Shown here piece after piece: positions 1,549 through 41,070 of a stretch of DNA of 41,070 nucleotides (positions within the stretch are counted from its first letter, which is position 1; every line of letters begins with the position of its first letter). The position numbers and the translations under genes are program-made. This DNA is from an uncultured archaeon (GTDB lineage Archaea > Asgardarchaeota > Lokiarchaeia > Sigyniarchaeales > SOKP01): contig CAYUTF010000021.1 of NCBI GenBank assembly GCA_964447495.1, positions 1-41,070 of the forward strand. The letters are read 5' to 3'. Under the pieces are notes generated by a model, which was given only the letters and a program-made list of their open reading frames with translations, searched no databases and was not told where the DNA came from.

Positions 1549-3282
1549 TTAATTAGATTTTTTGGCTTCATCTCGAAGGGATCTCTTCAATACTTTTCCC
1601 ACAGCAGTAAGAGGCATCGCTTCTCGAAATTCCCATATTCTAGGATTCTCATATTTGGAAAGATGGTCGGATGCATATTTTTTTAAATTCTCTTTAATGA
1701 TATCACTTGGTTCAATTCCCTCTTTTAATTGGACTACTGCTTTTACTATTTCACTTCCAGGCCGATCGACATCAGGTAATCCAATAATAGCAACTAATTC
1801 TATATCAGGATGCTTTGTTAATATATCTTCGACATGTACGCTATAAACCTTATATCCGCTCACTATCAACATATCTTTCGTTCTATCGACAATAGTAATA
1901 TATCCATCCTCATCCATAATAGCAACATCACCAGTATGAAACCATCCATTCATTATCGTCTTTTCATTAGCGTCTGGTTTATTATAATAGCCTCTAGTCA
2001 CCTGTGGTCCTCTACAAATGACTTCTCCAGGTTTCCCTAAAGGCACTTGTTCTCCAGTATCGACATCAACAAGACGTATATCTGTATCAGGTATAGGTAA
2101 GCCAACAGTACCGATCTTTTTTGTTCCTTTGTATGGATTCATTGTTAGAATAGGAGATGTTTCAGTCATGCCATACACTTCTAATACTTTACTTTTTGCA
2201 TTTAAAGAGGCTTCAAAATCATTTATTGCCTCGGCAGGAAAAGGTGCCGCACCAGAGATATATATTTCTATTGCTTCTAAAGTGGAATTAGGAATTTCTG
2301 TTGCTTTAGGATTGTTTTTAATATTAAGATATAATGTCGGAACATTCACCATGATACGAGGGTTTTTTTCTTGCATTTCCATAATAATATGATCAGAATC
2401 TCTTGGATTGGCAATTAAGATCTGCCCGGCAGAAACATATAGCGTGACCATACTCATCGCAAGCCCAGCTAAATGGAATAGTGGAAAGGCAGATAGGTTC
2501 ACTTCTCCTTCCTTTGCTTCATATGTATCAATCCAAGTTATTATTTGAACTATATTCGAAATAATATTCTTATGGGTGAGTTCGGTTCCTTTAGGTAACC
2601 CTGTAGTTCCACCAGTATACTGAAGCAAGGCAAGATCATTCTCAACATTGATATCAACATCTTTTAAATTGATTTCTGTTTTCATCACTTCTTTAAAGTC
2701 CAATACATATTTGTCCTTATATGGTTGGACTTTCCCTTTTGGAATTTTACCGAGTAATTTACCTAAGACAACTAATACCTTCGAGAGCCCCATATAATCA
2801 GATACATTTGTAGTTATTATGCATTTTAGATTTGGCACTTTATCTAATATCTTAATTAAGACCTTAGCATATATCGCATCTAAAGTCACAAAAAATTTAG
2901 ATTCACTGTCGTTAATCTGATAAGCTACTTCTGTAGGACTTAATAGAGGCGAAGACCCAGAAGCAACTCCGCCTGCTAATAAGGTTCCGAAATGGGCGAT
3001 CAGATATTGTGGACAATTAGGTAAACTAATTGCTACACGATCGCCTTTCTTTAATCCATTTTCCTGTAAAAAGGTTGCAAATCGATGGATTTTATCTCGG
3101 AGTTCTTTAAATTTCATATCTCTTTTCATAAAATAGCAGGCAATTCTCTCAGGAAATTTATTCATTGCATTGTCAAATAATTTGCCAAGAGATTCCTTTG
3201 GATACTCTAAATTTGGTTTCACATGGGAATCATATGATTTAATCCATATTTTCTCATCATAAGGCGACTTATTCGATGAAAT
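1549..3282 (-). CDS. fadD: Long-chain fatty acid--CoA ligase (AMP-forming)
   Basis: YTGGTTGLPKG, YGMTETSP, GWFHTGD, DRTKDML and PLTAVGKV motifs. The frame stays open upstream of the track's GTG (3222) with FadD-like PYDEKIWIKSYD, so the start is proposed at ATT 3282. Confidence 0.9.
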   Translation of the reverse strand: MSSNKSPYDEKIWIKSYDSHVKPNLEYPKESLGKLFDNAMNKFPERIACYFMKRDMKFKELRDKIHRFATFLQENGLKKGDRVAISLPNCPQYLIAHFGTLLAGGVASGSSPLLSPTEVAYQINDSESKFFVTLDAIYAKVLIKILDKVPNLKCIITTNVSDYMGLSKVLVVLGKLLGKIPKGKVQPYKDKYVLDFKEVMKTEINLKDVDINVENDLALLQYTGGTTGLPKGTELTHKNIISNIVQIITWIDTYEAKEGEVNLSAFPLFHLAGLAMSMVTLYVSAGQILIANPRDSDHIIMEMQEKNPRIMVNVPTLYLNIKNNPKATEIPNSTLEAIEIYISGAAPFPAEAINDFEASLNAKSKVLEVYGMTETSPILTMNPYKGTKKIGTVGLPIPDTDIRLVDVDTGEQVPLGKPGEVICRGPQVTRGYYNKPDANEKTIMNGWFHTGDVAIMDEDGYITIVDRTKDMLIVSGYKVYSVHVEDILTKHPDIELVAIIGLPDVDRPGSEIVKAVVQLKEGIEPSDIIKENLKKYASDHLSKYENPRIWEFREAMPLTAVGKVLKRSLRDEAKKSN

Positions 3283-3461
3283 CGCATAACACCTATTTAT
3301 TAATTAATTAAAATTTATGAAATTTGTAAATATCTTTATTATTATTTTGGAAATTTATAAAAGTTTCTTCATTTTTGAGTAAATTCTTCTTCCAAACCAT
3401 AAAATTATTTATGATTTTAATAATAAGTTTAAAAATAAAATAAAGGAAGTTTTTTGACTAT

Positions 3462-4475
3462 TTAGCCGATATTAACCATGACCTTGATATCCTCATGAAG
3501 CGCGTCTGATAATCGTTTAAATGATTCTGTTACTTCTTCAAGATTAACTCTTCTGGTTATTAATGGCGTTACATTAACTTTTTTCTGCTCAATAAGTCTA
3601 ATTGCTGTCTTGAATGCATCTTGATCAACAAGGTACATTCCTTTAAAAGTTATATTCTTTGAGATAATTTGAAACCAACCCTTCACTTCGAAAGGGGCAG
3701 AATACATCCCAATCAGCATTATAAACCCGCCTCTTTTAATTAGCATCAATGAATTCATTATTGTATCAGGGATTCCAACGCAATCAAAAATAAAATCGGG
3801 ACCTATCTTATCAGTATGCTTTAAAATTCTATTCCACTTTTTCGTATCAAAAACAAAATCTGCACCTAATTCTAATGCTAGTTTTTGTTTATACTCTATT
3901 GGTTCAATAACAAAAATATTTGAAGCTCCTGCTGCTTTTAAAACTTGAATAATCATTAATCCAATTGTACCTGCCCCAAAAACTGCTGCATTATTGCCGA
4001 TTTTGAATCCTGACAACTTAACTGCATGAACAGCTATTGTTAAGGGCTCAACCATGGCTCCTTCTTCAAATGACAGACTATCAGGCAATTTATGAACCCG
4101 ATCCGCTCGAACTTTGATATATTCGGCGAGTGCACCATCATGAGTAACACCTATAGTATGATGGATACATGATGTTTCGTTCCCAGACTTACAATAGTTA
4201 CATTCTAAACACGGTTCATTTGGATTTGCCACAACTCTATCTCCAATTTTAAAAGAGTTTACATTGAGTCCCATCTCAATGATTTCACCACTAAATTCAT
4301 GCCCTAAAATCATTTCCTGTGAAGACATACCACCACTTTTAAACGAACTAATATCAGAACCACAAATTCCGCAGTTTTTTACTTTAATAAGTACTTCGTC
4401 ACTATTAATCACGGGTTTTGGAAGGTCATCTCTTAAATAAATCTGCATGAGTCTTTCAAAAAATATTCCTCTCAT
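3462..4475 (-). CDS. Zn-dependent alcohol/polyol dehydrogenase (MDR superfamily)
   Basis: CGICGSD, GHEFSG, structural Zn site CLECNYC...C, VEPL, GAGTIG Rossmann motif; AGGAG RBS upstream. Confidence 0.9.
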   Translation of the reverse strand: MRGIFFERLMQIYLRDDLPKPVINSDEVLIKVKNCGICGSDISSFKSGGMSSQEMILGHEFSGEIIEMGLNVNSFKIGDRVVANPNEPCLECNYCKSGNETSCIHHTIGVTHDGALAEYIKVRADRVHKLPDSLSFEEGAMVEPLTIAVHAVKLSGFKIGNNAAVFGAGTIGLMIIQVLKAAGASNIFVIEPIEYKQKLALELGADFVFDTKKWNRILKHTDKIGPDFIFDCVGIPDTIMNSLMLIKRGGFIMLIGMYSAPFEVKGWFQIISKNITFKGMYLVDQDAFKTAIRLIEQKKVNVTPLITRRVNLEEVTESFKRLSDALHEDIKVMVNIG

Positions 4476-4534
4476 AATTTTAACTCCTAGTTTTATTTGT
4501 TTTGATAATTTTTTAAAAAAAATTAAAAATGAAA

Positions 4535-6244
4535 TTAAAGGATTCCCATGGATGCCATTAATTTTGTGCCATCGCTCATGGTTTGGGCACTCTTCACATC
4601 AAGTACTGCTGGTTTATTTGAGGATTTTGCTCGTTCTAATGCTGCTTTAAGTTGATTTGGATCCGTAATTACCTCTCCGTAACATCCAAATCCTTCAGCA
4701 CACTTTGCAAAATCAAAATCAGGAAGATCAACATCAATAAAATGTTTTTTCTTGTATTTATTTTGACAAGATTTGATCATACCCCAAGAGCTATTGTTGG
4801 CAATTACATATATTAAATTTTTTAATCCTAAACGCACAGCAGTTTCCAAATCCTGGACATTAAATAGAAAGCTTCCATCTCCGACAATAGCGATGACTTG
4901 TTTTTCCGGTTTCGCGAGTTTCGCTCCAATAGCATAAGGAACGGAAGTTCCTAAATGTCCCATGCCGATAGAGGTTAGTGTGGAGAGAGGAGGGCGAGGT
5001 TTATGAAAGTTTATTTGCTCTACAGTGTAACATGCAATATCGCCTCCATCAATAACAAGGATGGCATCATCATCCATAAATTCCATCGTTTCATAGACTA
5101 ACCTTTCGGGAAGGATGGGTGTCTTGTCTTTAAGGATCCTCTTAAAGAATTTATCTTTAAAACTAGCCCTTAGTCCTTGTAGTGACTCTAACCACTCTCG
5201 TTTCTCAACCTTTTTACTTTTCTTTACTTCCGCTAGCATCTGTTTTAAAAATAATTTGCAATCTCCAATAATCCCTAAGGTAATAGGTTTCGCACGACCT
5301 ATAATACTAGAGTCAATATCTACTTGAATCAGTTTTTGTGAATTTTTGAAAAACGGCTCATCTCCATGGCCCATTGTAAATGAAAATTTACAACCTAATG
5401 CTAAAACTACATCTGCTTGATAAGATACCTCTTTACCAAATCCTTGTATCGTTGAATCAATTAAACATCGGGAAGAGTTTGAAAGAGTACCAATCCCCAT
5501 TACGGTAGTAATGACAGGTATCTGCAAATATTCTGCAAATTCTTTTAATTCATTCCAACCTTCTGATCGTGTCACTCCACCCCCTGAAAGGATTAATGGC
5601 TTTTCTGCATTTAATAATAGCTCAAGAGACTTTTTTATTTGGTCATTTTCAATCGCAGGCATTCCGTATGGGCGATACATCTCTTTTGGTAAAATTTTCA
5701 CGTTTTCCTCTTCCTCTTCTTCAAGAAAAGCATCCTCATAAATCTCTAATAAAGCGGGTCCAGGTCTACCTCCTGTCGCTGCACGGAAAACTTTGTGCAC
5801 CGCATCCGGTATTTTATTTAAATCTCGTATACTTCTTTGATATTTGGTTATAGGTTTAAAAAGAGTTATTTGATCTAAGTTTCCTTGAAGAGTATAAGTA
5901 TCATCATACTGGCTATTGACTTGAGGCACTATTGCAATAACAGGGATATTATCACTCCATGCCGCACCTACTCCCGGTACTAGGTCGGTTGCTCCCGGTC
6001 CTACAGTACCAAAACACACTCCTGGCTTGTTGGTGACTCGTGCCCACGCATCTGCTGCATGTGCTGCACCTTGTTCGTGCCGAAACATCACGGTATCTAT
6101 GCCTTTTTCTCGACCCCATTCATAAATCGCGTCAAACATATTTAAGAATTGGCCACCTATAATCCCAAACATATATTTAACATCTTCTTCAAGAAGACAT
6201 TTAACTAAAACGTCTCCTCCGTTAATTTTAGTTTTTTCCTCCAT
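4535..6244 (-). CDS. Thiamine diphosphate enzyme of the acetolactate synthase / 2-hydroxyacyl-CoA lyase (ILVBL-like) superfamily
   Basis: RHEQGAAHAADAWAR, GPGATD, GRPGP, DGGD, GDGSF...NN TPP motif. ATG at 6244 lies 6 nt after AGTG. Confidence 0.85.
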   Translation of the reverse strand: MEEKTKINGGDVLVKCLLEEDVKYMFGIIGGQFLNMFDAIYEWGREKGIDTVMFRHEQGAAHAADAWARVTNKPGVCFGTVGPGATDLVPGVGAAWSDNIPVIAIVPQVNSQYDDTYTLQGNLDQITLFKPITKYQRSIRDLNKIPDAVHKVFRAATGGRPGPALLEIYEDAFLEEEEEENVKILPKEMYRPYGMPAIENDQIKKSLELLLNAEKPLILSGGGVTRSEGWNELKEFAEYLQIPVITTVMGIGTLSNSSRCLIDSTIQGFGKEVSYQADVVLALGCKFSFTMGHGDEPFFKNSQKLIQVDIDSSIIGRAKPITLGIIGDCKLFLKQMLAEVKKSKKVEKREWLESLQGLRASFKDKFFKRILKDKTPILPERLVYETMEFMDDDAILVIDGGDIACYTVEQINFHKPRPPLSTLTSIGMGHLGTSVPYAIGAKLAKPEKQVIAIVGDGSFLFNVQDLETAVRLGLKNLIYVIANNSSWGMIKSCQNKYKKKHFIDVDLPDFDFAKCAEGFGCYGEVITDPNQLKAALERAKSSNKPAVLDVKSAQTMSDGTKLMASMGIL

Positions 6245-6387
6245 ATTTTTCACTTTTACTGTATAATAAACCTTGATTGATACTAATTTTCGTTATATGT
6301 GTTTAAATAATTAACTAAGTATAAAAGTTAATGATGATTTAGCCACTTATTTTTATTATTTATCCCTTATTTTACCTTTCAAAACCT

Positions 6388-7383
6388 CTAATAACGAAAT
6401 GTATCAAGGGTAGATAAAAATTCCTTTAAATCTGATGGAATTTCCCGAACATAATTATTCTTCAAATTAAGGATCTTCAGCCTTTTTATCTGTTTTATGG
6501 AATCTGGCAGTTTTTCGATATGATTTTTACTCAAATCTAATTCACTGAGCAGAGACAAAGAAGGAATAAACTTTGGAATGTCTATAATACTATTTGAACT
6601 TAATCGTAAAGATTTTAGCTTGGTTAGCAGTCCGATTGAATCAGGGATAAGGGGTGGACTTCTATCGATATCATCATATTTTTGATGCAATAAAAAAAAT
6701 GAGTCCAAATCATTAATTCTCATAAAACTTGTAATAATATCCTGATTATTCTTAATGTATACCCAATTATAGTAATTATATGTTAATGCTTCCACATGCT
6801 TCTCCTTAATTGAAATCCAAGGCTTTGGAACACCAATCTTTCTCAATGCTCTAAAATATTCAAAAGAATCCTCTGAAATTGCATAAATTTTTAACGCATT
6901 TGAAAATAGACATTCAACATCTAAAAAAAAAGGCGCTTCTAAGGGAATTATGTCAAGTTTTTTTGCATAATTTTGGATCCATTCTGATATAGCAGTTTTA
7001 ATTTCGAAAAAAGTACCTGTTTTCTCTTTTGATGCAATATCATAGAGGCTTTTTATTAAAGTAGGAGAAGTATCGTGTTTAATTGCCCATTGTAATGCAC
7101 TACTTCCATATTTTAAGAATTTTTCTGCTATGAGTTGAGCAGCAGAAGCCCTTACAAAATGATTTTCATCAGAAAGCAGACAACTCTCAAAGATTTTATA
7201 TATCTGTTCTGACTTATCAGGGTGTACTCCTAATTTTTGAAAGAATAAAATACAATCTCGTCGCATTTCTGGATTGTTACTTTTTTCAATGAGAGAGAGC
7301 AAGAGGTCAGTAGCTAATGACTTATTAATTTTACCCTTAGAAACATCCTTATATATCGCTTCTGGAGTTAATGACTCATTCAT
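6388..7383 (-). CDS. HEAT-repeat + C-terminal leucine-rich-repeat protein
   Basis: N-terminal DENHFVRASAAQLI HEAT-like helix pair; C-terminal LxxLxLxxNxIxxI/LP repeats (LKSLRLSSNSIIDIP, LSELDLSKNHIEKLP, LKILNLKNNYVREIP). Confidence 0.8.
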   Translation of the reverse strand: MNESLTPEAIYKDVSKGKINKSLATDLLLSLIEKSNNPEMRRDCILFFQKLGVHPDKSEQIYKIFESCLLSDENHFVRASAAQLIAEKFLKYGSSALQWAIKHDTSPTLIKSLYDIASKEKTGTFFEIKTAISEWIQNYAKKLDIIPLEAPFFLDVECLFSNALKIYAISEDSFEYFRALRKIGVPKPWISIKEKHVEALTYNYYNWVYIKNNQDIITSFMRINDLDSFFLLHQKYDDIDRSPPLIPDSIGLLTKLKSLRLSSNSIIDIPKFIPSLSLLSELDLSKNHIEKLPDSIKQIKRLKILNLKNNYVREIPSDLKEFLSTLDTFRY

Positions 7384-7643
7384 AGCACTGATTAAATTAT
7401 ATCAAAAAAATTCAAATTAGTAAGGTAAAATTAAAAATTTAGACAATAATATTCTTTGAGGTTGAAAGGTTTAAATAATTTTTCTTGAAATCTAAAAACG
7501 CTATTAATGTCCATTATCCCTAGTAAAATCAGTTATTTCAACAATTGTATCATAATTTAAATAAACAAAATTTATATTACTGGGAGAGTATTAGTTCATC
7601 ACTATTTAATAATAATATTAAATGATAAAAGGTTGAAATTACA

Positions 7644-8243: not shown

Positions 8244-9779
8244 ATGAAAACCTATGAAGAATATGTTCAAGATTTGCTGAAGATGAAACCAAACATTTAC
8301 ATCGGTGATGAGGTAGTTGGGAGGGATGACCCCCGAATAAAAGGAGGGATGCGAATCATTAAAGAAACGTATGATCATGTAAATGAACCCGAGTGGGAAA
8401 ATATTTGTACTGCTACAAGTCATATTACTAATAAAAAGATTAATCGCTTCTGTCATATCCATCAGAGTGAGGAGGATTTACTAAAAAAACAAATGATGAC
8501 ACGACAACTCTGCCATAGGGTTGGAGGATGTATCCAGAGATGTATGGGTATCGATGCTCTCAACGCACTCTCAGTCGTCACTTATGAAGTCGACCAAGCA
8601 CTCGGATCGGACCATTATCAACGTTTTCTAAAATATATGGAATATTTCCAAGAGAATGATTTGGTAGCAAGTTGTGCACAAACCGATGCAAAGGGAGATC
8701 GTCTTAAGAGACCCCATGAACAAGAGGATCCAGATCAATATCTAAGAGTGGTAGAGACTCGTGAAGATGGTATTATTGTACGAGGGTGTAAGCTTAATAT
8801 TACCAATACCCCCTATGCTCATGAACTAATCGCAGTTCCATGTAGATATATGGGCCCCGAGGATAAAGATTATGCGGTGGCATTTGCCCTACCTACAGAC
8901 TGGGAGGGCGTAAAACTCCTTACACGACCTGCTAATTTTAGAAAAAGTAAAGTTTATCAAGCACCGGGATTAGAGATTGGTGATGCTGAAACCTTTATTA
9001 TTTTTGATGATGTTTTTGTCCCTAAAGAACGTGTATTCTTAAATGGTCATGGGGATCCAAGACAAACTGCTTATGCTGGTTTTTTAGCTCTCATGTTTGC
9101 TCACTTTCATCGACATAGCTATACCGGTTGTAAACCCGCAGTATCGGAAGTTATTGCAAGCGCCGCTGCGTTAGCAGCTGAATATAATGGCATTGAAAGT
9201 ACCTCTCATGCAAAAGATAAAATATCACATATAATAGGTACAGCTGAACTTGTTTTTGCGGCTGGAGAATCGAGTGCGAAACATTCTGAAAAGGCACCCT
9301 CAGGTACTCAAGTCCCTGATGAGATTCTTACAAATGCGGGCAGAAGACTTGCAGGGGAAATGATTTATGAGGAATATAAAATATTGGCAGACCTCTCGGG
9401 GGGAATAATTGCAACCTTACCATTCGAAGAGACTTTTTATCATGAAGAAGTTGGTGAGCTAGCGATGAAGTACTTACAAAGAAATCCCAGAGTTAAACCA
9501 GAAAACATACTTCGGTGTTTCAAGGGAATAGAAGCTATAGCAGTGTCTGATCTAGCAGGAGTGATGCAAGTTGCTGGATTACATGGAGGAGGAAGTCCTC
9601 AAATGGAAACAATTACCATGATGATGCGCTACGATACAGAAAAATTAAAAGATATAGCTAAATATCTGTTTGGAATAAAATCTAAACTGAAACCCTACAA
9701 AAGACCAACAGTAACCCCTCGGAAACAACTTGAGAAATTTCGAAAAGCAATGTTAAGAAAAAAGGATGAAGCTAGGTAA
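8244..9779 (+). CDS. abfD: 4-hydroxybutyryl-CoA dehydratase / vinylacetyl-CoA isomerase family ([4Fe-4S]/FAD)
   Basis: CIQRC and HRHSYTGC supply the Cys3/His cluster ligands; also TDAKGDR, FDDVFVP, HGGGSPQ. Confidence 0.8.
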   Translation: MKTYEEYVQDLLKMKPNIYIGDEVVGRDDPRIKGGMRIIKETYDHVNEPEWENICTATSHITNKKINRFCHIHQSEEDLLKKQMMTRQLCHRVGGCIQRCMGIDALNALSVVTYEVDQALGSDHYQRFLKYMEYFQENDLVASCAQTDAKGDRLKRPHEQEDPDQYLRVVETREDGIIVRGCKLNITNTPYAHELIAVPCRYMGPEDKDYAVAFALPTDWEGVKLLTRPANFRKSKVYQAPGLEIGDAETFIIFDDVFVPKERVFLNGHGDPRQTAYAGFLALMFAHFHRHSYTGCKPAVSEVIASAAALAAEYNGIESTSHAKDKISHIIGTAELVFAAGESSAKHSEKAPSGTQVPDEILTNAGRRLAGEMIYEEYKILADLSGGIIATLPFEETFYHEEVGELAMKYLQRNPRVKPENILRCFKGIEAIAVSDLAGVMQVAGLHGGGSPQMETITMMMRYDTEKLKDIAKYLFGIKSKLKPYKRPTVTPRKQLEKFRKAMLRKKDEAR

Positions 9780-9807: not shown

Positions 9808-10770
9808 TTATAAAAGACAAAGTACAAATTTTTGAGTGGCAGTTATTTCGGTTAAGGTCAAGTCAGCATCATCTTGAATAAATTGTAAAAGAGGAATCCC
9901 TTTTTCGAAAAGTTCATTGTATTTGTCATAAAAGATTTGAAAGATATTTTTATTTCGAGAAACGTAAGAACCAATTAATCGATTTGTTGGATCAAAGCTT
10001 GGTTGGATGAGTTCATTATCTGTAAGATTGAAATTACTAAAATCATCATAAGTCACATGAACAGTAACCAATTTAAATTCTAAATTGTATTGATTGATAT
10101 GGTCTGTTAAAATGGTAAATTCGGGACTCAATAATAATTCTTTTATGACTTCGGCATTGAAGATAACCTGCAAATTGAGATTCTTAAGATTTTCGGAGAT
10201 TTTTAACATACCATTTCTCATTGCCTCTTTAATCTCTTTAGGAGTATCTTTCGGACCATATTTTTTAATGGTTGCAATTAACTCGTTATCATATCTTATA
10301 CCTATAGCAATTTTACATATATCTTTACTTAAAAAAGAATGATATGTCTCATCTAGACTATTTAAACTATATTTAATAAATTCAACAAATTCTTGTGTAA
10401 CCGGTTCACCTAAATTATAGGTTTGTATCAGATCTGAAAGAGCTTCTTCTGCCTTATCTTTCTTCTCTTGAAATTGACGTGTTAACTCTTCGATGCGATT
10501 ATTTATAATTTTTTGCCACAATGGAATTACAGGAGTAGCTAAGTGAATCTTCATTGGTCTATCATAAATCTGTACCAATTCTAATTCGCTTAACACGGCA
10601 CATATTTTATAGCCTCGTTTTAGCGTTAAATCATAAAGAGAAGTAACATCATTAAGGTTTTCAATCCTTTTATTTTTAAGTAAATAGTGATAAACTTTTT
10701 CAATACCTTTCTCAATTACACCGATTGCATCAAACAGAGAACTAAGTGCTAAGAATTCGTTATTTTCCAT
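9808..10770 (-). CDS. TrmB-like transcriptional regulator (N-terminal winged HTH + sensing domain)
   Basis: G-x-EKVYHYLL...KRGYKICAVLSELELVQ...RPMK resembles the TrmB N-domain pattern; GGTGA RBS overlaps the upstream stop. Confidence 0.6.
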   Translation of the reverse strand: MENNEFLALSSLFDAIGVIEKGIEKVYHYLLKNKRIENLNDVTSLYDLTLKRGYKICAVLSELELVQIYDRPMKIHLATPVIPLWQKIINNRIEELTRQFQEKKDKAEEALSDLIQTYNLGEPVTQEFVEFIKYSLNSLDETYHSFLSKDICKIAIGIRYDNELIATIKKYGPKDTPKEIKEAMRNGMLKISENLKNLNLQVIFNAEVIKELLLSPEFTILTDHINQYNLEFKLVTVHVTYDDFSNFNLTDNELIQPSFDPTNRLIGSYVSRNKNIFQIFYDKYNELFEKGIPLLQFIQDDADLTLTEITATQKFVLCLL

Positions 10771-10778: not shown

Positions 10779-11306
10779 CTACAATTCTGTTTTTTCTAAG
10801 GTTAATTCAGTTAGAACTTCAAACGTTTTAGTAACATTTTGCCCTGTTTTGCTTGAAATCTCTCCAAATGAAGCCATTTTATGCTTTTCAGCAATTTGAA
10901 TACCAAACTCCCTTGTAATTTTTCGTTGTTCTTCAGCCAGATCTATTTTTGAACCTACAAGCATTACTGGGATTTCACCTCCTTTTTGATGCACAATATT
11001 AGTCCATTCACTAATATTATCAAGTGTTTGGGGCCTCGTAATGTCATATAGTAAGAAAGCGGCATTAGCTCCTAGACAATAAGTTGGTAAAAGAAATCTA
11101 AAACGTTCTTCCCCTCCAACATCCCAAATCTGTAGCTTAATCCTTTTTCCATTTAATTCTATTAATTTTACATGAAAATCAACACCGATCGTAAGCCTCT
11201 CAGAGGGATTAAAAATATTATAGCAATATCTTTTAGTAAAAGACGTCTTCCCTACAGAAGCGTCACCAAGCAATAAAATTTTAAATGTATAATCATATGT
11301 CGAAAT
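10779..11306 (-). CDS. Rab-like small GTPase (Ras superfamily, eukaryotic signature protein)
   Basis: G1 GDASVGKT, RabF1 IGVDF, RabF2 KLQIW, G3 DVGGE, RabF5 LYDIT, G4 SKID, G5 SSK. The beta1 strand YDYTFKILLLG lies upstream of the track's start, so the start is placed at ATT 11306. Confidence 0.93.
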   Translation of the reverse strand: MSTYDYTFKILLLGDASVGKTSFTKRYCYNIFNPSERLTIGVDFHVKLIELNGKRIKLQIWDVGGEERFRFLLPTYCLGANAAFLLYDITRPQTLDNISEWTNIVHQKGGEIPVMLVGSKIDLAEEQRKITREFGIQIAEKHKMASFGEISSKTGQNVTKTFEVLTELTLEKTEL

Positions 11307-11371
11307 TCCTTAACACCCTTTTCAAGTTGGTTAAAACCTCAATTTAAAACTAACGCCTATTCTTGGCTAAA

Positions 11372-11571: not shown

Positions 11572-12123
11572 TTAACGAGATTGAATTATTTGTTTTAGAT
11601 TATCATAGATTACGGGATTTAACTCCTTTTCGAGATGATCTTGAAGTTCAGAACGAATAATGGGATTATCTATTTGAGTTGCTAAGAATTTTATCACACT
11701 CCATCGCACTGAATCATCAGGGTCATCTAATAATGGCAATAGAAACTTAATATACTTTATATCATTATTTTCAGTTATTTTCATAACTGCCTTCGCACGA
11801 ATTATAAAATCAGGATTATATAACTGAGGTAATAAATGATATTCAATAAGGCCATCATCTGTAAAGTTCAATATGAATTGAAATAACTCCTTTTTAAATT
11901 CATGTACTTTATCAACTTCGTTAATAAATTTTTTAACGGTTAATTGAGGTATTTTATTCCCCAATTTAAGAAGACTTTCAAAGGAAATGAAAAAGTTTTG
12001 GGATATATCATATTTTAGGTAATTTAACAACTTTTTAATAATTTTGTCGTTTACCTTTGAAACTTCTATTATGTCCCAGTTATCATATTCCTTTAAATTT
12101 TTATTATCCCCCAAATAATTCAC
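11572..12123 (-). CDS. HEAT-repeat protein
   Basis: LYNPDFIIRAKAV and LLDDPDDSVRWSVIKFL HEAT/PBS-lyase-type repeats; GTG start. Confidence 0.75.
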   Translation of the reverse strand: MNYLGDNKNLKEYDNWDIIEVSKVNDKIIKKLLNYLKYDISQNFFISFESLLKLGNKIPQLTVKKFINEVDKVHEFKKELFQFILNFTDDGLIEYHLLPQLYNPDFIIRAKAVMKITENNDIKYIKFLLPLLDDPDDSVRWSVIKFLATQIDNPIIRSELQDHLEKELNPVIYDNLKQIIQSR

Positions 12124-20758: not shown

Positions 20759-21112
20759 TTACTCAAAATCCATAAAGATTTCTAATTTTTGAAGAGCATT
20801 CATGTCTCCTTTTGTTTTCAGCTCTCCTTCCATAAAGGCTTCCATTGGGTCAACCTCACCCGTTGCTATTCCTACAAATAAGTCAGATTTAGTCTCCAAG
20901 CTCATTTCAGAGTTTTCATCAAGTCCTTCTTCTAATCTAACTTTCTTGTCCTGAAAAATCATCTTGATTTTATAATTAATATCAGAAAAGATAAATTGCA
21001 TTGTTTTATTAAATCCTTCAAATTCTTGGGCAACTTCGGGATTATCAACTAGTTTTACCCATTTGTTTAATGCTTGTTTAACTTCTTCTTTTGTAGCCGT
21101 TATATTCACCAA
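20759..21112 (-). CDS. SCP2 sterol/lipid-binding domain protein
   Basis: GEVDPMEAFMEGELKTKGDMNALQKL is the SCP2 C-terminal signature. Start is uncertain (TTG 21112, GTG 21109 or ACG 21100). Confidence 0.85.
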   Translation of the reverse strand: MVNITATKEEVKQALNKWVKLVDNPEVAQEFEGFNKTMQFIFSDINYKIKMIFQDKKVRLEEGLDENSEMSLETKSDLFVGIATGEVDPMEAFMEGELKTKGDMNALQKLEIFMDFE

Positions 21113-29415: not shown

Positions 29416-29435
29416 ACAAAAAAAGGTGATAAAAA

Positions 29436-29654
29436 ATTCTTAATAAAAATGATAAAAATAATGAGCGTGAACTATTTCCTTCAGATATAATAACGATAAC
29501 TCATTATAGTAATTCAGAATCCGAAAGGCTAAGTCAAATTAGTAACCTTCTTCCTAAGCCAAATAATTATTCCAGCATTAAGGTTGAAAAATATTTAAAC
29601 AAGTTGGATTTAGACGCAAAAATCGTGCACAAAAAACATAGAGATGGAGATTAA
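29436..29654 (+). CDS. Unannotated 72-aa hydrophilic small protein (ATT start, or frameshifted from ATG 29381)
   Basis: 72 stop-free codons in very AT-rich DNA, preceded by AGGTGAT; no in-frame ATG. Confidence 0.4.
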   Translation: MLNKNDKNNERELFPSDIITITHYSNSESERLSQISNLLPKPNNYSSIKVEKYLNKLDLDAKIVHKKHRDGD

Positions 29655-34589: not shown

Positions 34590-35563
34590 CTAGTGAAGAT
34601 ATTCCTTAATAGTCTTACAGATTAAGTAATCTATCCATAAATTATAATCTTTGATTTTAGCTCCTTTTAAAAGTTTTAAATTCCAACTACCATTATTTTG
34701 TTGTTGTACTTTAAACCAGTCAAGAGCTTTTTGTATCTGAGGATGTTCCTTGGTAAAAGCTAACTTATAGATAGAATCTAATGAAGATAATAGATCAGTA
34801 AACCAAAAAGGAAAGGTAAATTTGGTCCAATAGCTCTTATCTCGTCTATCGGGATATTTATCATTCTGAAAAAATTGGGATAATAATAACTTGGCAGCTG
34901 CTTTTACTTCAGGTGTATATCTATATACTGGATGGGCCGCAAAGGCTCTTAAAACCACTCCGGTAATCATATGAGAAGAAGGCTTATCTCTTTTCGGTTG
35001 AAGAATATGGTTTGAATATGCAACATCGTTCCATTTAGCATTGTTTGAACGGATTGGAACACACCATCCACCATCACTTTGCCTCATAGATAAAAGCCAC
35101 TTTAGGCATTTTTCAACGAGTTTGTCTTTATCATATCCTAATTTTATTAAAAGCTCTATAATTCCTGCTGAATAATTAGGAGAATATTGCGTACCATAAA
35201 TTCCTCGAAAGTCTCCTTCTGATGTTTGAAACGTGAACAAGAATTCCGACGCTTTTTTTATTGAGGGGTGAGTGTTTTTAAACCGATATATCTCGACTAA
35301 TAAGCCTAATTGTCTGTATGTTTCTAATTGATTGTAATTTTCTTGAATGCGAATATTTTGTTTTCCCCCGGATACTTCCATGCACCATCCTCTTGCTGTT
35401 TACTAAGAATTCTTTGGGCTCCTTCTAAGAGCCATAAATGCTCAATTTTCTCCATTTTTTTATCAAGAAGGTCACTCTCTATAGCATATAAGAGTTCCTC
35501 ACTTTTAGTGGAAAGTAGAGAAGGAATTGGAACAAAATTTAATTGGGTTTTCCACGTACTCAA
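34590..35563 (-). pseudogene. Prenyltransferase/squalene-cyclase (QW) repeat protein split by a -1 frameshift at about 35360-35370
   Basis: QQEDGAW in the 5' ORF (35324-35563) continues as QTSEGDF, QSDGGW, QQNNGSW in the 3' ORF (34590-35381); the frames switch in the run CCGGGGGAAAAC. Confidence 0.7.
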
Positions 35564-35578
35564 TATACTTTCACTTCA

Positions 35579-36505
35579 TTATTCCATTAGTTCCATAAAC
35601 CATTTAATAGGGATTTGTATTTTAACTTTTTTAAGAAAATTTTCAATGGATAATATTCCTAGATCGGATACTATAGCTTTTATAAAATGGGATGGAGTAA
35701 TATCAAAATAAAAATTCTCTACTCTAAAATTTTTAATTTTAATTTGTTTATCATAAATTTGCTTTATAGGTTTAGGTTCAATTTCTACCTTATAACCATA
35801 ATGGCTAAACAAGTTATATTTATATGAATCCGATATTACATACATATCTTTATGATTTGAATTCGCCAACACAGCTAAAGGATAGGTTCCGATCTTATTT
35901 ATTATTGATCCATCTTGAAGAATGCTATCTGCTCCAATGAATATTAGATCAATGTTATTAATGAACTTTCCTGCTGCAGCATCAATAATTAGATGCGTTT
36001 CATACTTCTCTGATAACATTTCCGCTAATTTTTGACCTTCGAACAGTGGTCTAGATTCTAATATATAAAAAGTAAAAGTATTTTCAGTATTTTTTAGAAT
36101 TAGGTTTAAGATTGTTGAACTATATGAGATTAACATAATCCTTAACTCTGACTTTCCCATTTTATTTAGCATTAACTTGAAATTTTGTTCCAATAGAGAT
36201 TCTTTAATAGCTTGAGACGAATAGTATGCCTTAATTGCATTAGAAATTGATTTTTTCGTAAACTTGTCATTATAAGTAATTAGAAACCCCATAGAGTTAA
36301 TTAGAGGGGCCATACTTGGCCGAGTTTTAATTAGTTTATCTACTAACTTATAAATTAAGTCTTTAATATTCTCATTTGGGTCTCTAATTGAATCTAACTG
36401 ATCTTGAATTACTTTAACTGCTTTTAAAGCAAGTTCATTGGCACCCGAACTTGAGTCTTTTCTAATATCATTAATTTGTGAAATTATAGAGTCCGAAATT
36501 TCCAT
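35579..36505 (-). CDS. eIF-2B alpha/beta/delta-like family protein (aIF2B / R15P isomerase superfamily)
   Basis: SSGANELA, RPSMAPL, ESRPLFEG, GADSI, NKIGT, FDITP. Confidence 0.85.
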   Translation of the reverse strand: MEISDSIISQINDIRKDSSSGANELALKAVKVIQDQLDSIRDPNENIKDLIYKLVDKLIKTRPSMAPLINSMGFLITYNDKFTKKSISNAIKAYYSSQAIKESLLEQNFKLMLNKMGKSELRIMLISYSSTILNLILKNTENTFTFYILESRPLFEGQKLAEMLSEKYETHLIIDAAAGKFINNIDLIFIGADSILQDGSIINKIGTYPLAVLANSNHKDMYVISDSYKYNLFSHYGYKVEIEPKPIKQIYDKQIKIKNFRVENFYFDITPSHFIKAIVSDLGILSIENFLKKVKIQIPIKWFMELME

Positions 36506-36549
36506 AATCTTAAATTAATATAGTTAATATACTAAGGGCTTGAATCTAT

Positions 36550-37059
36550 CTAAAATTTTTCTTCCGATAATTCATCTGCTGCTTTTACATAATCAGGTAT
36601 GAAATTCGTCTTCAATAAATTTGAATTACCAGTTGCAATTAATTTTCCATTTATATCATAAATTTCAGCAGTCATATGAATGATGTTTCTTCCTTCTCTA
36701 ATAACTTTCCCGATCGCACGTACCTTTTCCCCCACTTTAACCTTTCCTAAAAAATCAACATGAAAATCGATACTAATTGGGAATCCTTCATAACCCAAAG
36801 TGGTAGATGTTATCCCGATACAATCATCCATTAATCCACACTGCATTCCTCCATGTAATAAGCCCGTAGGATTTGCCATTTCAGGTCTAACTAGAAATTC
36901 TAATTCCATTTCTCCCCGTTTAACATTAATTATTTTATAATTAAGCCACTTTGAGAAAGGAGGCGCTGGAAAGTCTTTAATCTCTTTTCCCTTGTAATTA
37001 TCAAACAGTTCAACCATTCTATCAGAACGTTTCTGTATTTTTTTGTCTAGCTGCGACAT
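36550..37059 (-). CDS. PaaI family (hotdog-fold) thioesterase
   Basis: NPTGLLHGG...LMDD, GRNI. Confidence 0.9.
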   Translation of the reverse strand: MSQLDKKIQKRSDRMVELFDNYKGKEIKDFPAPPFSKWLNYKIINVKRGEMELEFLVRPEMANPTGLLHGGMQCGLMDDCIGITSTTLGYEGFPISIDFHVDFLGKVKVGEKVRAIGKVIREGRNIIHMTAEIYDINGKLIATGNSNLLKTNFIPDYVKAADELSEEKF

Positions 37060-37212
37060 TTTTAAATTAGATTACTTTTATTGGTTTGTTATTATTAAAG
37101 GATTATTGCTTTTTTTAATCATTGTGCTTATAAATCCTAAATTTGAATAATATAAACTATTAAATTGATAGATTATTTTACTAATTAAACATTTTTAACC
37201 ACTTCTATTGAC

Positions 37213-38622
37213 TTGAATGTGAAAGATCTTTCTTTTATTAACAATATTAAATCCATGGCAGTTATTGGGACATCTGCAAAAAGAAATTTTTTCTTCTTAA
37301 AGAATCATCAAGAAAGTTTCAAAGGGTCCCTTTATGCTATTAATCCTACCGTAAAAGAGATCCCGGATTTTCCAACAGAAAACATTTTTGCTTCTATCAA
37401 AGATGTTCCCGGGGAGGTTGATTTCGCGTTTATTACAGTCCCAGCTCATAACATTTTATCTGTGATTGATGATTGTATTGAAAAAGGAGTTAAATTAGTA
37501 ACTATATTTACTGCTGAGTTTTCTGATTCAGGAACAGAAGAGGGTATTGAATTAGAAAAAGAATTACTTCAACATGCTGATAATAAAATAAGAATATTAG
37601 GACCAAATGGAATGGGGCTTTTTTACCCTAAATTAGGGATAGCGTGGAGAGGTTTTTTTCCAAAAACTCAAGGTAATATTGGATTAATAGCTCAATCGGG
37701 TGGTATGTGCAATATAGCAATTTATACCTCGATAGAATTAGGGTTTAATTTTTCTAAAGTTTTTTCCTTTGGAAATGGTGCAGATTTAGATTTCGTAGAT
37801 TTACTTCACTTTCTGAGCGATGACCCCGAAACGGATTTAATTTTACTTTATATTGAGGGTATCAAAGAAAATCGCTTTGATGCTTTAAAGGAGGTATTAT
37901 CCAAAAATAAAAAACCAATTGTAGCCTTAAAAGGAGGAAAATCCGAATCAGGCTCAAAAGCTGTAAGAACGCATACGGCATCGATTTCGGGTAATGATAA
38001 AATATGGTCTGCATTATTCAAACAATATAATATAATAGAAGTTGATTCACTGGAACAATTACTGCATGCTGCTCAAATTATTGACTTTTATGGAATCAAT
38101 GAATTTAAAAATGTAGCAGTTTTTAGTATTAGCGGAGGATATGGAGTCGTATTAGTAGATTTAATTGAAAAATATGGTATGACCGTACCCCCTTTTAGTG
38201 ACGAGATTCAAAATAAATTGGATCAAAAATTCTTCATTAATGGAACTAGCTCAAAAAATCCTCTTGATGTTGCGGCTCAAATGTTTCATAGCTCTACACT
38301 TGTTGATATTGTTGATATAGCATTATATGACAGTAATATTGATACATTAATCATGGATATGCCGAGTTGGTATTTTAATCATCAATATTTTATCACTCAA
38401 GATGATGATTTTAATCAAAATTTTGAAAAAATATTCAAATTAGGACACAAGCATAAAAAACCTCTATTTCCAATAATCCAGAAGGCTCATTGTCCCGAAG
38501 AAAGTATTAGAATGGCACGAGAGTTAGCTAAATATAAAGTTGCAATTTTTGATAATCCCCTTGAATTTATCCCTTTACTTTCGAAAATATCTAATTTCAA
38601 AAAAAGGAAATTATTTTGCTAA
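37213..38622 (+). CDS. acdA: Acyl-CoA synthetase (ADP-forming) alpha subunit / CoA-binding protein
   Basis: VIGTS, LGPNGMG, AQSGG, SFGNGAD, THTASISG phospho-His loop, NPLD; TTG start. Confidence 0.85.
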   Translation: MNVKDLSFINNIKSMAVIGTSAKRNFFFLKNHQESFKGSLYAINPTVKEIPDFPTENIFASIKDVPGEVDFAFITVPAHNILSVIDDCIEKGVKLVTIFTAEFSDSGTEEGIELEKELLQHADNKIRILGPNGMGLFYPKLGIAWRGFFPKTQGNIGLIAQSGGMCNIAIYTSIELGFNFSKVFSFGNGADLDFVDLLHFLSDDPETDLILLYIEGIKENRFDALKEVLSKNKKPIVALKGGKSESGSKAVRTHTASISGNDKIWSALFKQYNIIEVDSLEQLLHAAQIIDFYGINEFKNVAVFSISGGYGVVLVDLIEKYGMTVPPFSDEIQNKLDQKFFINGTSSKNPLDVAAQMFHSSTLVDIVDIALYDSNIDTLIMDMPSWYFNHQYFITQDDDFNQNFEKIFKLGHKHKKPLFPIIQKAHCPEESIRMARELAKYKVAIFDNPLEFIPLLSKISNFKKRKLFC

Positions 38623-38725
38623 TTTAATTTCATCATAAAAGACATGAAAAAAAAGTGAAGTAATTAAAAATAAACGTATTATAATTCAAATACTAATTTA
38701 ACAATTATATTATTAGGCATGCATC

Positions 38726-39208
38726 ATGATGAAAGCAACAGTAATATATGAAGATCGTTTCGATATTGGTGCAAATAAAGCCTTTGAGCTTACGATGCAG
38801 TGGTTAAGGAGTCAACATAAAGCTAAAATTAAAAAAACAACTCCATACAACTTTATCGAAGCGAAGCAGGGAACCATGATGGCAAATACGGGTCATGATC
38901 CAAATTGGAAAAAGAAAATTCGAATAAGTTTTTATCAATTAGAACAAAACAAAATTCTCGTTAGAGTAGAAGCAACACCTCTTTCGCGCAATATTTTCAG
39001 GATAGAAAAACTTAAACAATCATGGTATAATGGCCTTTTTAGCCATTATTTTTCTATTCTTCAAACTGCTCAAGAAACTAAAATAAAAGAAGATATATTG
39101 AAAAAAGAACCTATAACTCAAACAATCACTAAATATTGCCCCAATTGTGGAAAGGAAGTAGATAAAAATGCTATTATTTGCCCCAGATGTGGAGTTGATA
39201 TCATTTAA
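38726..39208 (+). CDS. Hypothetical protein with C-terminal zinc ribbon
   Basis: YCPNCG...ICPRCG. Confidence 0.75.
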   Translation: MMKATVIYEDRFDIGANKAFELTMQWLRSQHKAKIKKTTPYNFIEAKQGTMMANTGHDPNWKKKIRISFYQLEQNKILVRVEATPLSRNIFRIEKLKQSWYNGLFSHYFSILQTAQETKIKEDILKKEPITQTITKYCPNCGKEVDKNAIICPRCGVDII

Positions 39209-39275
39209 GAAAAGAGGGCTATATTTTTATTATATAATTTTATTATGAGGGAATTAAAGGCTTCGATGACCCTTT

Positions 39276-39398
39276 TTATTTTGAATTAATTCTCTCAAAC
39301 TGATTCCAATTATTTAAAATTTCAAGAGTTTCATCCAGTTTACCAACATCAAAAAGTTGTTCCACTTTTGCTAATTGTTTTAATTCAAGTTGGGTCAT
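39276..39398 (-). pseudogene. 40-aa ORF, probable truncated N-terminus of a TPR-like protein
   Basis: MTQLELKQLAKVEQLFDVGKLDETLEILNNWNQFERINSK* has a TPR-like A..LF..GK.DE.LE.L pattern and then stops. Confidence 0.5.
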
Positions 39399-39546
39399 AT
39401 AATAAATTGATTTGGATTACCTTATGGATATAGTAAGCTAATTGCGACTATAAAGGTGATCTTAGAAATGAAAATGGGATAAAAGTAATATTAATAAATT
39501 TTTGAATTGAGGATATATATAAAATTAGAAAAAAAGTGAATATATA

Positions 39547-40821
39547 TTGCAAACGAAAGAAGTATGGCTTATTGATTATGCACGTACGGCATTTTCACGT
39601 TCCAGACCAGATCAACCCGAAAGAGACGTTTTTGGCGAAATTCGGGGAGATGAATTGCTTGCTAATTTATTAGTAAAATTTTTTGATGAAAAATTAGCTA
39701 ATAAAGGCATAGCCAAAAAAGATATCGAAGAAGCATCAATAGGTATAGCTTCTGGCGTATTAGAAAATTGGACTTATGGTGGAAAAATTCCTCTCTATTT
39801 AGCAGGGTTTCCAAATGAAGTATCCTCATTTATGATTGATAAACAATGTGCTTCTGCGGGTGCTGGAATGCATGCATTAATCATGCATATTATGACAGGT
39901 AATAGTAAAATTGTTTTAGCAACTGGGTTTGAACATATGACAAGAGTTCGGAGAATTGGAATTGTTCCTGAATGGGAGCGATTTAATGATCAAAAAAGTA
40001 AGTATTATCGTCCTGAACTTGATATTATGAACTCAGTCAATATGTTACAAACTGCTCAAAGATTATATGAAGAAGAAATACCACGATTTACAAAAGATGA
40101 TTTAGACAAATTTGGTGTAAGAAGCCATAATTTAACAATTAAAAGTCAAGAAGAAGGATGGTTTAAAGGAGAAATAATACCGATGGAAGGTCATGTTGAG
40201 AAAAATGTGGATGAACCAATGATGGTGGATAGAGATATGGCAGCAAGAAAATCTAAATTGGAGGTTGTTTCTGAACTACCAAGAATTTCAACACCGTTCT
40301 ATTTAGAAAAAAATGGTGGCAAACATGGTTATATTGAAAGAGAGGGAACTGAAGAAGGTGTAATAACAGCAGCGAATTCATCACCCCTGAATGCAGGAGC
40401 TACAGCAGCAATTTTAATGGAAGCAGAAGAAGCAAAAAGAAGAGGATTAGAACCAATGGCACGGATCGTCTCAATCGGTTGGGCAGGAGTAGATCCAAGA
40501 GTTATGGGGCGAGGTCCCGTTCCTGCAAGTCGAAAAGCATTAGAATACGCAGGATTGAAAGCTGAAGATATTGACTATTGGGAAATAAATGAGGCTTTTT
40601 GCATTGTTGCTTTAAATTGTATGGATAAATTCAATATTCTTGAAGAGAAAGTTAATGTTATGGGGGGTTCTACCGCGATAGGGCATCCTTTAGGGGCAAC
40701 AGTTATCCGTCTTACTGGAACATTAGCACGTATATTAAAAGATAAAAAAGCAAAATATGGGTTAGCGAATGCCTGTGTGGGAGGGGGCCAGGGAGTAGCT
40801 ACGATTATAGAAAGAATTTAG
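39547..40821 (+). CDS. Acetyl-CoA C-acyltransferase (thiolase)
   Basis: DKQCASAG active Cys, NEAF, GHPLGA, CVGGGQG; TTG start 8 nt after AGTG. Confidence 0.93.
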   Translation: MQTKEVWLIDYARTAFSRSRPDQPERDVFGEIRGDELLANLLVKFFDEKLANKGIAKKDIEEASIGIASGVLENWTYGGKIPLYLAGFPNEVSSFMIDKQCASAGAGMHALIMHIMTGNSKIVLATGFEHMTRVRRIGIVPEWERFNDQKSKYYRPELDIMNSVNMLQTAQRLYEEEIPRFTKDDLDKFGVRSHNLTIKSQEEGWFKGEIIPMEGHVEKNVDEPMMVDRDMAARKSKLEVVSELPRISTPFYLEKNGGKHGYIEREGTEEGVITAANSSPLNAGATAAILMEAEEAKRRGLEPMARIVSIGWAGVDPRVMGRGPVPASRKALEYAGLKAEDIDYWEINEAFCIVALNCMDKFNILEEKVNVMGGSTAIGHPLGATVIRLTGTLARILKDKKAKYGLANACVGGGQGVATIIERI

Positions 40822-41007
40822 CTCCTTTTTTGATATGAGACTTTTATAGATTTTATCACTTTAACCAAGTGGCTTATAGAAGCTTTACTTAATTTATATA
40901 TCAGTTCAATAATTAATTAAAGTAATAATCCCTAAAAAACAATTATAAACATCAATTTCTTATAAAATTCAGAGCATGAAAAATTTTTTACTCAACAATT
41001 TTAATAG

Positions 41008-41070
41008 GTGAGATTAATAACACTAACCGGAATCCACTTTTTATTGACTTATTCATGTAATTATGAATGC
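41008..41070 (+). CDS. 5' end of a probable radical SAM protein (truncated by the window edge)
   Basis: (V/M)RLITLTGIHFLLTYSCNYEC: hydrophobic strand + LT..CN..C, the start of a CxxxCxxC motif; AGGTGAG RBS-like site. Confidence 0.6.
   Translation, partial: MRLITLTGIHFLLTYSCNYEC

Follow-up and report, generated by a model that had tools for sequence, protein, structure and literature searches.

The closest described relatives of the start signal considered here are the AUU start codon of the bacterial gene infC, which encodes IF3, and an ATT codon reported for a tubulin of an Asgard archaeon. The signal itself, an ATT codon placed 7 nt downstream of a GGTG motif resembling a Shine-Dalgarno (SD) sequence (GGTG-N7-ATT), was analysed in a contig of an uncultured archaeon of the Lokiarchaeia (CAYUTF010000021.1), examined over its whole length of 41,070 nt (approximately 32% G+C; hereafter the window), and in related loci. 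To judge from the orthologues, ATT is most likely the true translation start codon of two genes of the window, encoding a Rab-like small GTPase (ATT at 11306) and a long-chain acyl-CoA ligase (FACL; ATT at 3282).

According to the accessible part of PMC4705826, infC, the classical bacterial case, carries a conserved AUU on an SD-led mRNA, as do the genes described here; this start is weak and its use depends on initiation fidelity. The product of infC is itself a fidelity factor and its autoregulation has been demonstrated, whereas our genes, known from sequence, belong to an archaeon with aIF1 and aIF2 and encode a GTPase, a ligase and two proteins resembling a hydroxylase and an amidohydrolase. 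No initiation factor was found among these products (Ras-family, AMP-binding, HpaB-like and amidohydrolase-like), which places them outside the infC type. In the tubulin AtubA of Kariarchaeaceae, a rare ATT located upstream restores the fold and has a ribosome-binding site at a plausible distance (PMC13394414, available text). That case concerns a single gene of another Asgard class and was derived from structure prediction and alignment, whereas the arrangement described here extends over several families and 80 species, with a fixed GGTG-N7 spacing and a reading-frame test. The ATT start of ebpA in Enterococcus faecalis (PMC4447247) and the non-canonical starts of Deinococcus deserti (PMC2830850) had been placed downstream by annotation, and the rare codon of ebpA attenuates expression (PMC4447247); as stated in the available portions of both articles, these bacterial starts were proven by reporters or N-terminal proteomics, whereas ours were identified by sequence comparison.

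For archaea, the accessible part of a review (PMC7531240) gives AUG, GUG and UUG as start codons, AUU, AUA and AUC not being listed there. GUG and UUG are near-cognate codons read by the initiator tRNA (same source), and in our loci TTG and GTG also favour GGTG at N6-N7; they are first-base variants accepted by all gene finders, whereas AUU, AUA and AUC vary at the third base. GGUG forms part of the archaeal SD core and stands 6 nt before AUG in a Pyrococcus model mRNA, GGAGGUGAUUUAAAUG (PMC6237735, available text). In a ribosome profiling study of Haloferax, about 30% of the putative alternative start sites were near-cognate and were set aside, as far as the accessible text reports (PMC7261190). 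In the literature searched, with subscription journals and supplements outside its scope, we found no systematic description of such starts in Asgard archaea, only the remark on AtubA.

Motifs in the window

The first-pass annotation of the window had proposed that non-canonical start codons recur at a fixed distance from GGTG at five loci: ATT at N7 in the GTPase gene, the ligase gene and a small open reading frame (ORF), ACG at N6 in an SCP2-family gene, and ATA at N6 in a radical-SAM-like gene. All five motifs were found on re-reading the sequence (Table 1). The number of GGTG-N7-ATT motifs is at the level of chance (6 observed, 5.6 expected from shuffled sequences, with 54 of 100 shuffles reaching 6); beyond chance is their placement, since two of the six fall on N-termini defined by orthologues. 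The proposed ATT starts are confirmed in this way for the Rab and FACL genes, ACG and ATA are candidate starts, and the small ORF is without support.

Table 1. Positions of the genes, motifs and candidate start codons discussed in the text (window coordinates, except in the last row)
Feature	Position	Strand	Evidence or remark
FACL gene, ATT 3282-3280 to TAA 1551-1549, 577 aa	1549..3282	-	Pfam AMP-binding 1.4e-83
AGGTG, SD-like, 7 nt before FACL ATT, spacer TTATGCG	3290..3294	-	sequence
GTG, first canonical codon in FACL frame, chosen by gene caller (P0132, 557 aa)	3220..3222	-	GTA/GTT/GTC in orthologues
HpaB-like hydroxylase gene	8244..9779	+	ATG in window
Gene of 320-aa protein	9808..10770	-	no Pfam match
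Rab-like small GTPase gene, ATT 11306-11304 to TAG 10781-10779, 175 aa	10779..11306	-	Pfam Ras 2e-43
GGGTG, SD-like, 7 nt before Rab ATT, spacer TTAAGGA	11314..11318	-	sequence
TTG, first canonical codon in Rab frame, chosen by gene caller (P0004, 164 aa)	11271..11273	-	inside KIL[L]LGD
HEAT-repeat gene	11572..12123	-	conserved GTG start
SCP2-family gene; candidate starts ACG 21100-21098, GTG 21109-21107, TTG 21112-21110	20759..21112	-	Pfam SCP2
GGTG of SCP2 gene, N6 before ACG 21100-21098	21110-21107	-	sequence
72-codon ORF after GGTG-N7-ATT (GGTG 29425-29428, ATT 29436-29438, in-frame TAA 29430-29432)	29436..29654	+	motif only; not supported as gene
5' end of radical-SAM-like gene (CNYEC motif), runs off window; candidate starts GTG 41008-41010, ATA 41017-41019	41008..41070	+	sequence
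GGTG of radical-SAM-like gene, N6 before ATA 41017-41019	41007-41010	+	sequence
Amidohydrolase-like genes in relatives	L018 1610-2486; L038 5859-6732; L053 4652-5513		upstream of HEAT-repeat and Rab genes

Start codons of the Rab-like GTPase genes

The gene caller placed the start of the Rab gene at the first canonical codon of the frame, TTG 11273, which is probably not the start. This codon lies 11 codons downstream of the ATT in conserved sequence, 3 residues past the K of KILLLGD, where the Pfam Ras match begins, and an in-frame TAA (11312-11310) is present 2 codons before the ATT. The methionine of the closest full-length homologue, P0001 (MSTYDYTFK), falls on the ATT of the window, and 16 of 17 votes from orthologues starting with ATG map to the same codon. 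Among the 120 Rab homologue clusters listed (77-99% identity), 89 have the N-terminus x-YDYTFK, and the remaining 31 (158-167 aa), with P0004 of the window among them, start within LLLGD or later and lose the first 8-17 residues, including part of strand beta-1.

The comparison was extended to 80 species-representative loci of Promethearchaeota, each comprising the Rab gene and 10 kb to either side of it. Together with the window they comprise 1.298 Mb of a single syntenic neighbourhood, on which all screen counts given below rest. At the Rab start position, 78 genes (those of the window and 77 loci) carry ATG (40), ATT (25), ATA (5), TTG (4), GTG (3) or ATC (1), and no other codon was found there. 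In 26 of the 31 genes with ATT, ATA or ATC, no in-frame canonical start is present upstream or within 3 codons downstream. In eight of these 26 (L001, L004, L005, L011, L015, L026, L036 and L072) the next canonical start lies 37-114 codons on, so that its use would delete the P-loop (residues 14-21). The ATT/ATA/ATC genes are intact (175-181 aa), with an identity to the consensus of 0.853, compared with 0.868 in the others, and GGTG is present 5-9 nt upstream of all 31, as against 6 of the 47 with a canonical start.

The annotated start of one Rab protein, P0049 from L022 (MCYVIPSYDF...), precedes the ATT by 4 codons and falls on an AGG within the SD. AGG is neither canonical nor near-cognate.

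Start codons of the acyl-CoA ligase genes

In the FACL frame an in-frame TAA (3306-3304) is present 8 codons before the ATT, and the first canonical codon, GTG 3222, follows 20 codons downstream within conserved sequence, past the motif SPYDxKIWxKSYDxH. This GTG is probably an ordinary valine codon, since the orthologues carry GTA, GTT or GTC at the aligned position. The ATT stands 5 codons before SPYD, exactly where 72 of the 120 homologues among those listed have methionine. Automated votes for this codon numbered 4 of 7; 20 orthologous starts were also read by eye, which placed the ATT at the position of the orthologues' ATG. Ten orthologues have GAGGT-N7-ATG leading into M-E-x-K-x-S-P-Y-D, and those of L022, L020, L069 and L074 also start with ATG, in other contexts. 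In both the Rab and the FACL gene, the ATT is favoured as the start because orthologues have ATG at its position, an in-frame stop lies upstream, (A/G)GGTG stands at N7 and no usable canonical start is available.

The sister locus L001 shares the AGGTG-N7-ATT of the window at the same position; it was labelled ATG in the family table, probably because of a paralogue, and this label was rejected after inspection by eye and the SD-anchored scan. In L047 and L032, GGTGATTTAG is followed by ATA, which is directly preceded by an in-frame TAG and aligns to the ATG of L069. The same ATA occurs in L028, L030, L036 and L026, whose starts are ambiguous because the GTG of GGTG (in L036 also a TTG) is in frame.

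Five of the 120 listed FACL relatives are shortened in the same way as the gene call of the window, one of them (P0138, 99% identity) on another contig. The expectation that such genes are systematically hidden from annotation was therefore half right: among the clusters listed, these five and the 31 Rab clusters are truncated at the N-terminus, whereas several NCBI records, namely the Rab proteins P0022, P0042 and P0038, already begin at ATT or ATA.

Screen of the syntenic neighbourhood

The neighbourhood contained 1314 stop-to-stop ORFs of at least 100 codons, of which 1091 were retained once overlapped shorter ORFs had been dropped; 977 of these had an orthologue-like match and they formed 76 families. 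A loose screen, based on BLAST alignments that extended 4 or more residues beyond the first canonical start on its upstream side, flagged 357 of 1009 ORFs and was abandoned because close relatives also align in translated untranslated regions (UTRs) and antisense shadows. It was replaced, after removal of overlapped ORFs, by the mapping of orthologous ATG codons, in which the start is the modal position onto which the first ATG of at least two orthologues falls.

The 812 genes that qualified carry at this position ATG (598), TTG (61) or GTG (16), or a non-canonical codon with a canonical start upstream (85), with one within 3 codons downstream (2) or with none nearby (50). The last group consists of ATT (39), ATA (6), ATC (1), CTG (3) and TTA (1). 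ATT, ATA and ATC therefore make up 46 of the 50 unexplained starts, compared with a background codon use of 9.6% (4.9, 3.2 and 1.5%, respectively), and the description of start selection in this lineage as relaxed proved too broad. The 46 cases belong to the Rab (26), HpaB-like hydroxylase (15) and FACL (3) families and to two single genes; with the anchor (Rab) family left out, the count is 20 of 734.

The 85 genes with a canonical codon upstream were rejected as odd starts: they are mostly members of the HEAT-repeat family (AGG in 32, GGG in 22), in which the gene truly begins 4 codons earlier, at a conserved GTG. The four CTG and TTA cases, all from the amidohydrolase-like family, were likewise set aside as mapping artefacts, the likely start being GGTG-N7-ATA approximately 29 codons upstream. 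Among the mapped starts of these A+T-rich genomes, TTG exceeds GTG by far.

Spacing and reading frame of the GGTG motif

GGTG is located 4-10 nt upstream of 35 of the 46 ATT/ATA/ATC starts, 27 of them at N7, as against 113 of the 598 ATG starts. In a test anchored on the SD and limited to the region upstream of the first canonical start, GGTG-N7-AT(T/A/C) was found 55 times in frame, never in frame +1 and once in frame +2; this in-frame excess is absent at N5, N6, N8 and N9. Among the 87 in-frame codons at GGTG-N7, 77 are start-capable (ATT 32, ATA 17, ATC 6, TTG 11, ATG 6, GTG 5). With such frame and spacing specificity, seen in several families of related genomes, the claim that ATT at GGTG-N7 is a real recurrent start signal of the lineage is upheld. 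TTG, GTG and ATT/ATA/ATC are concentrated at N6-N7, and GGTG accompanies them more often than it does ATG, which fits the compensation of a weak codon by a strong SD. At N7 itself ATT, ATA and ATC together outnumber ATG (55 and 6); ATG is found mostly at N5 (65 cases, largely from one family).

The statement that the spacing is comparable in ATG and TTG genes of the window proved true of few of them. Orthologues define the start of 20 window genes, and of these only the Rab (N7) and FACL (N7) genes and the gene starting at 10770 (N5, ATG) are preceded by a complete GGTG at a distance of 3-11 nt.

Other families and phylogenetic distribution

Three further families in the related loci behave in the same way. 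Besides Rab and FACL, such starts occur in the HpaB-like hydroxylase and in an amidohydrolase-like family. The HpaB-like genes have ATT at the codon of the window's ATG in 20 of 55 orthologues, mostly in a clade in which Rab has ATG. The motif upstream of these ATT codons is often AGTG(G/A)A, still at N7.

The amidohydrolase-like family (N-terminus FKIFDAHLHTYG), which had been mis-mapped in the first screen, was found by the SD-anchored scan. In 23 of its 58 members GGTG-N7-AT(A/T/C) is located five codons before FKIFDAHLHTYG, and no other start is plausible. Immediately upstream, the frame is often closed by the TGA of GGTGA, and the first canonical start of these 23 genes is reached only beyond FKIFDAHLHTYG, 13-85 codons into the stop-to-stop frame. 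An ATG near the upstream position is present in other members. The gene is absent from the window between 12142 and 12525 (for examples in relatives see Table 1).

In a FastTree phylogeny of 77 rows, built from three neighbouring proteins with the start regions removed, the window is the sister of L001. ATT, ATA or ATC in Rab fills a well-supported clade of 30 rows, with reversions to ATG or GTG, and occurs in two other clades, which requires at least 7 changes; the minimum is 4 for ATT in the HpaB-like genes and 2 for FACL. Since different families show ATT in different clades, this is a habit of the group and not of one gene, and it has lasted through much sequence change. The arrangement with AUU, AUA and AUC, kept over long evolutionary distances in several families of Lokiarchaeia, would thus represent a used and selected start signal and not a defect.

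Alternative explanations

One rival reading concerns the SCP2 and radical-SAM-like genes alone, and places their starts at the in-frame GTG (or TTG) in or beside GGTG instead of ACG or ATA, both loci then being canonical; we consider the chances to be even. The motifs are there, but each GGTG contains an in-frame GTG following an upstream stop (TAA TTG GTG AAT ATA ACG in SCP2, with TTG GTG directly after TAA; TAG GTG AGA TTA ATA in radical SAM, with GTG directly after TAG). A canonical start is therefore available at both loci, which had been overlooked in the first-pass annotation. In addition, public records start analogous FACL genes at an in-frame GTG (P0146 and P0147, V/MIYIQTQ). Against this reading, five SCP2 orthologues have ATG GCA ACA exactly at the window's ACG GCT ACA, three of them (L028, L047 and L056) with GGTG-N6 upstream, and in L056 the GTG is followed immediately by TAA, which makes the GGTG there an SD and not a start. 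Moreover, the FACL genes of L047 and L032 have TAG between GTG and ATA, L028 and L030 have the same GGTGATTTA(T/G) ATA with the frame open, and no SD precedes the GTG codons of the SCP2 and radical-SAM-like genes. The ACG of SCP2 thus appears to sit on the ancestral start, but the in-frame TTG and GTG 3-4 codons upstream compete with it. For the radical-SAM-like gene, of which only 21 codons lie inside the window, no orthologue was found among the 80 loci.

A second alternative accepts the AUU, AUA and AUC starts as real and denies GGTG the role of SD anchor: initiation would proceed via a very short leader, another factor or a lineage-specific aIF1, the association with GGTG-N7 having another cause. 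Most genes of the window are without an SD, and the HpaB-like ATT genes often have AGTG in place of GGTG, both of which speak for this view. It is nevertheless improbable in the light of the strict spacing (27 of 35 at N7) and of a frame specificity confined to N7. Furthermore, GGTG fits the SD core GGAGGUGAU of the Pyrococcus model mRNA, in which GGUG lies 6 nt before AUG (PMC6237735, available text), and within the single Rab family the motif accompanies every ATT/ATA/ATC start and few canonical ones.

It is very unlikely that the gene callers are right and that translation starts at the downstream TTG 11273 (Rab) and GTG 3222 (FACL), with GGTG-N7-ATT a chance motif of the 5' UTR. The chance-level count of the motif in the window agrees with this explanation, as does the position of the Pfam AMP-binding domain, which begins at residue 43 of the stop-to-stop frame and would be spared by a start at GTG (residue 28). 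The stretch between ATT and the canonical codon is, however, conserved as protein (STYDYTFK in Rab, SPYDxKIWxKSYDxH in FACL); the Rab TTG is not conserved, and eight of the 26 orthologues have no further canonical start for 37 codons or more, by which point the P-loop has been passed; the FACL GTG is replaced by other valine codons in the orthologues; and 55 motifs stand in frame against 1 out of frame.

Recoding, in which ribosomes would initiate out of frame, on the GTG of GGTG or on an ATG close by, and then shift into the frame of the gene, can practically be dismissed: the GTG is indeed present at -10 in all three N7 loci and out-of-frame ATGs are close (e.g. ATG 3287-3285), but the spacers vary widely between orthologues with no shared slippery sequence, the GTG frame of several orthologues stops within 2 codons (GTG GTA TAG in L001, GTG TGT TAA in L024, GTG TAT TAA in L025, GTG AAA TAA in L029), and ATG orthologues yield the same N-terminus with no shift. 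Hardly more credible are base-call or assembly errors at ATG, or dying genes left without their start: metagenome-assembled contigs such as the window do contain single-base errors, but the same codon state recurs in dozens of independent assemblies from different studies, a second contig yields the same shortened FACL protein (P0138), and the reading frames are as intact and conserved as in ATG-bearing orthologues.

Proposed mechanism and its implications

In the mechanism that we propose for the ATT starts, a GGUG(A/U) SD element would pair with the 3' end of 16S rRNA and, from 7 nt upstream, would put AUU in the P site of the small subunit; being strong and at the preferred distance, the SD would keep the 30S subunit positioned with AUU, AUA or AUC in this site. 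The initiator Met-tRNA would presumably pair with the first two bases and tolerate the mismatch at the third position, and the protein would begin with methionine where the orthologues have AUG. The feature is, as far as comparative evidence can tell, SD-assisted near-cognate initiation, a known kind, whose recurrence and conservation in Lokiarchaeia emerge from the comparison of loci. We speculate that the weak start probably gives low or tunable expression.

Several observations weigh against this interpretation of the ATT codons. The aIF1 of Saccharolobus solfataricus discriminates against AUU in vitro (PMC4705826, accessible part), so that ready acceptance of AUU would not be expected of an archaeal machinery. 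The HpaB-like genes with ATT have mostly AGTG upstream (GGTG in 4 of 20, RGTG in 14 of 20), and in some amidohydrolase-like genes it is an ATA at N4, not the one at N7, that aligns with the orthologues' ATG. Among the FACL relatives listed, the closest (P0123, 91% identity) starts with VISSNK, that is, at a GTG one codon upstream of the isoleucine aligned to the ATT, where the window has GCG; the FACL start may thus move by one codon between close relatives. The independent events are fewer than the raw counts suggest, because the gene instances share phylogenetic history. Phylogenetically independent pairs linking ATT/ATA/ATC with GGTG all point in one direction, but they are few (Rab 6, with 4.3 in the same and 0 in the opposite direction and a median p of 0.125; HpaB-like 4; FACL 2), too few for significance within any one family. 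Finally, the frequency of such starts (approximately 70 of 977 gene instances, 6 of 76 families) comes from one Rab-anchored neighbourhood and is not a genome-wide estimate.

A much more tentative idea, which we regard as rather doubtful, is that Lokiarchaeia, and perhaps Asgard archaea generally, use an enlarged start set, AUG, GUG and UUG together with AUU, AUA and AUC, under a strict GGUG-N7 rule. The AUU-type class would be deliberately weakly initiated, with output set by the stringency of aIF1, and would include eukaryotic signature proteins (Rab-like GTPase, tubulin). If true, this would be an archaeal counterpart of the bacterial infC control and of eukaryotic eIF1-dependent non-AUG regulation.

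Start codons of this type matter for annotation, since eukaryote-like proteins are sought in Asgard genomes, while ATG, GTG and TTG are the only starts permitted in most gene calls from metagenomes. Some species are left with no canonical start before the Rab P-loop, and the published Asgard tubulin had the same problem (PMC13394414, available text). Such genes would be recovered if gene finders applied the simple rule of accepting AT(T/A/C) in frame at N7 from GGTG. Moreover, the initiation factors of these archaea are of the eukaryotic type, and the aIF1 of a crenarchaeon rejects AUU in vitro (PMC4705826, accessible part); AUU starts conserved among the closest relatives of eukaryotes would thus offer a natural system for studying the evolution of start-codon stringency and whether weak starts are regulatory.

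Other features of the window

The small ORF (Table 1) is not supported as a gene. Neither a Pfam match nor, in a word-based search, a homologue was found, and a full HMMER search returned only two weak and patchy matches, to proteins of 845 and 1201 aa; these negative protein searches are of limited value because orthologues starting with ATT would never be predicted as proteins. Searches with tblastn and blastn against the 80 loci gave nothing, and no DNA of the relatives in that set spans the region. The codon-usage score of the ORF is 0.177 per codon (approximately the 5th percentile of real gene pieces being 0.152), and it ranks 49th of 59 among non-genic ORFs.

The window carries a gene set resembling fatty acid degradation (acyl-CoA dehydrogenase, AMP-binding ligase, enoyl-CoA hydratase, thiolase, SCP2, thioesterase and TetR), and a Ras-family GTPase is also encoded. 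Rfam and tRNA scans of the window detected no Rfam family and no tRNA gene, and neither the window nor the 80 loci contain rRNA.

The 320-aa protein without a Pfam match is encoded next to Rab, and it is the neighbour of Rab in 79 tblastn matches among the 80 loci. Its gene shares 28 nt with the 3' end of the Rab gene and has GGTG-N5-ATG inside the Rab coding sequence. Its protein-atlas features are similar to those of TrmB-family regulators (0.91-0.92), which is no more than a lead. The conserved GTG of the HEAT-repeat gene (GTG AAT/AGT TAT TTA) is found in many loci right after the upstream stop, with an A/T-rich, TATA-like stretch some 20-30 nt upstream, which suggests a leaderless GTG start.

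The proteins of the window are closest to those of metagenome-assembled genomes (MAGs) labelled Promethearchaeota or Lokiarchaeota. MAGs titled Hodarchaeota, Hermodarchaeota and Odinarchaeota (L015, L019, L024, L033, L056 and others) nest among the Promethearchaeota rows in the tree of neighbouring genes and have near-identical start regions; the phylum labels in these record titles look inconsistent.

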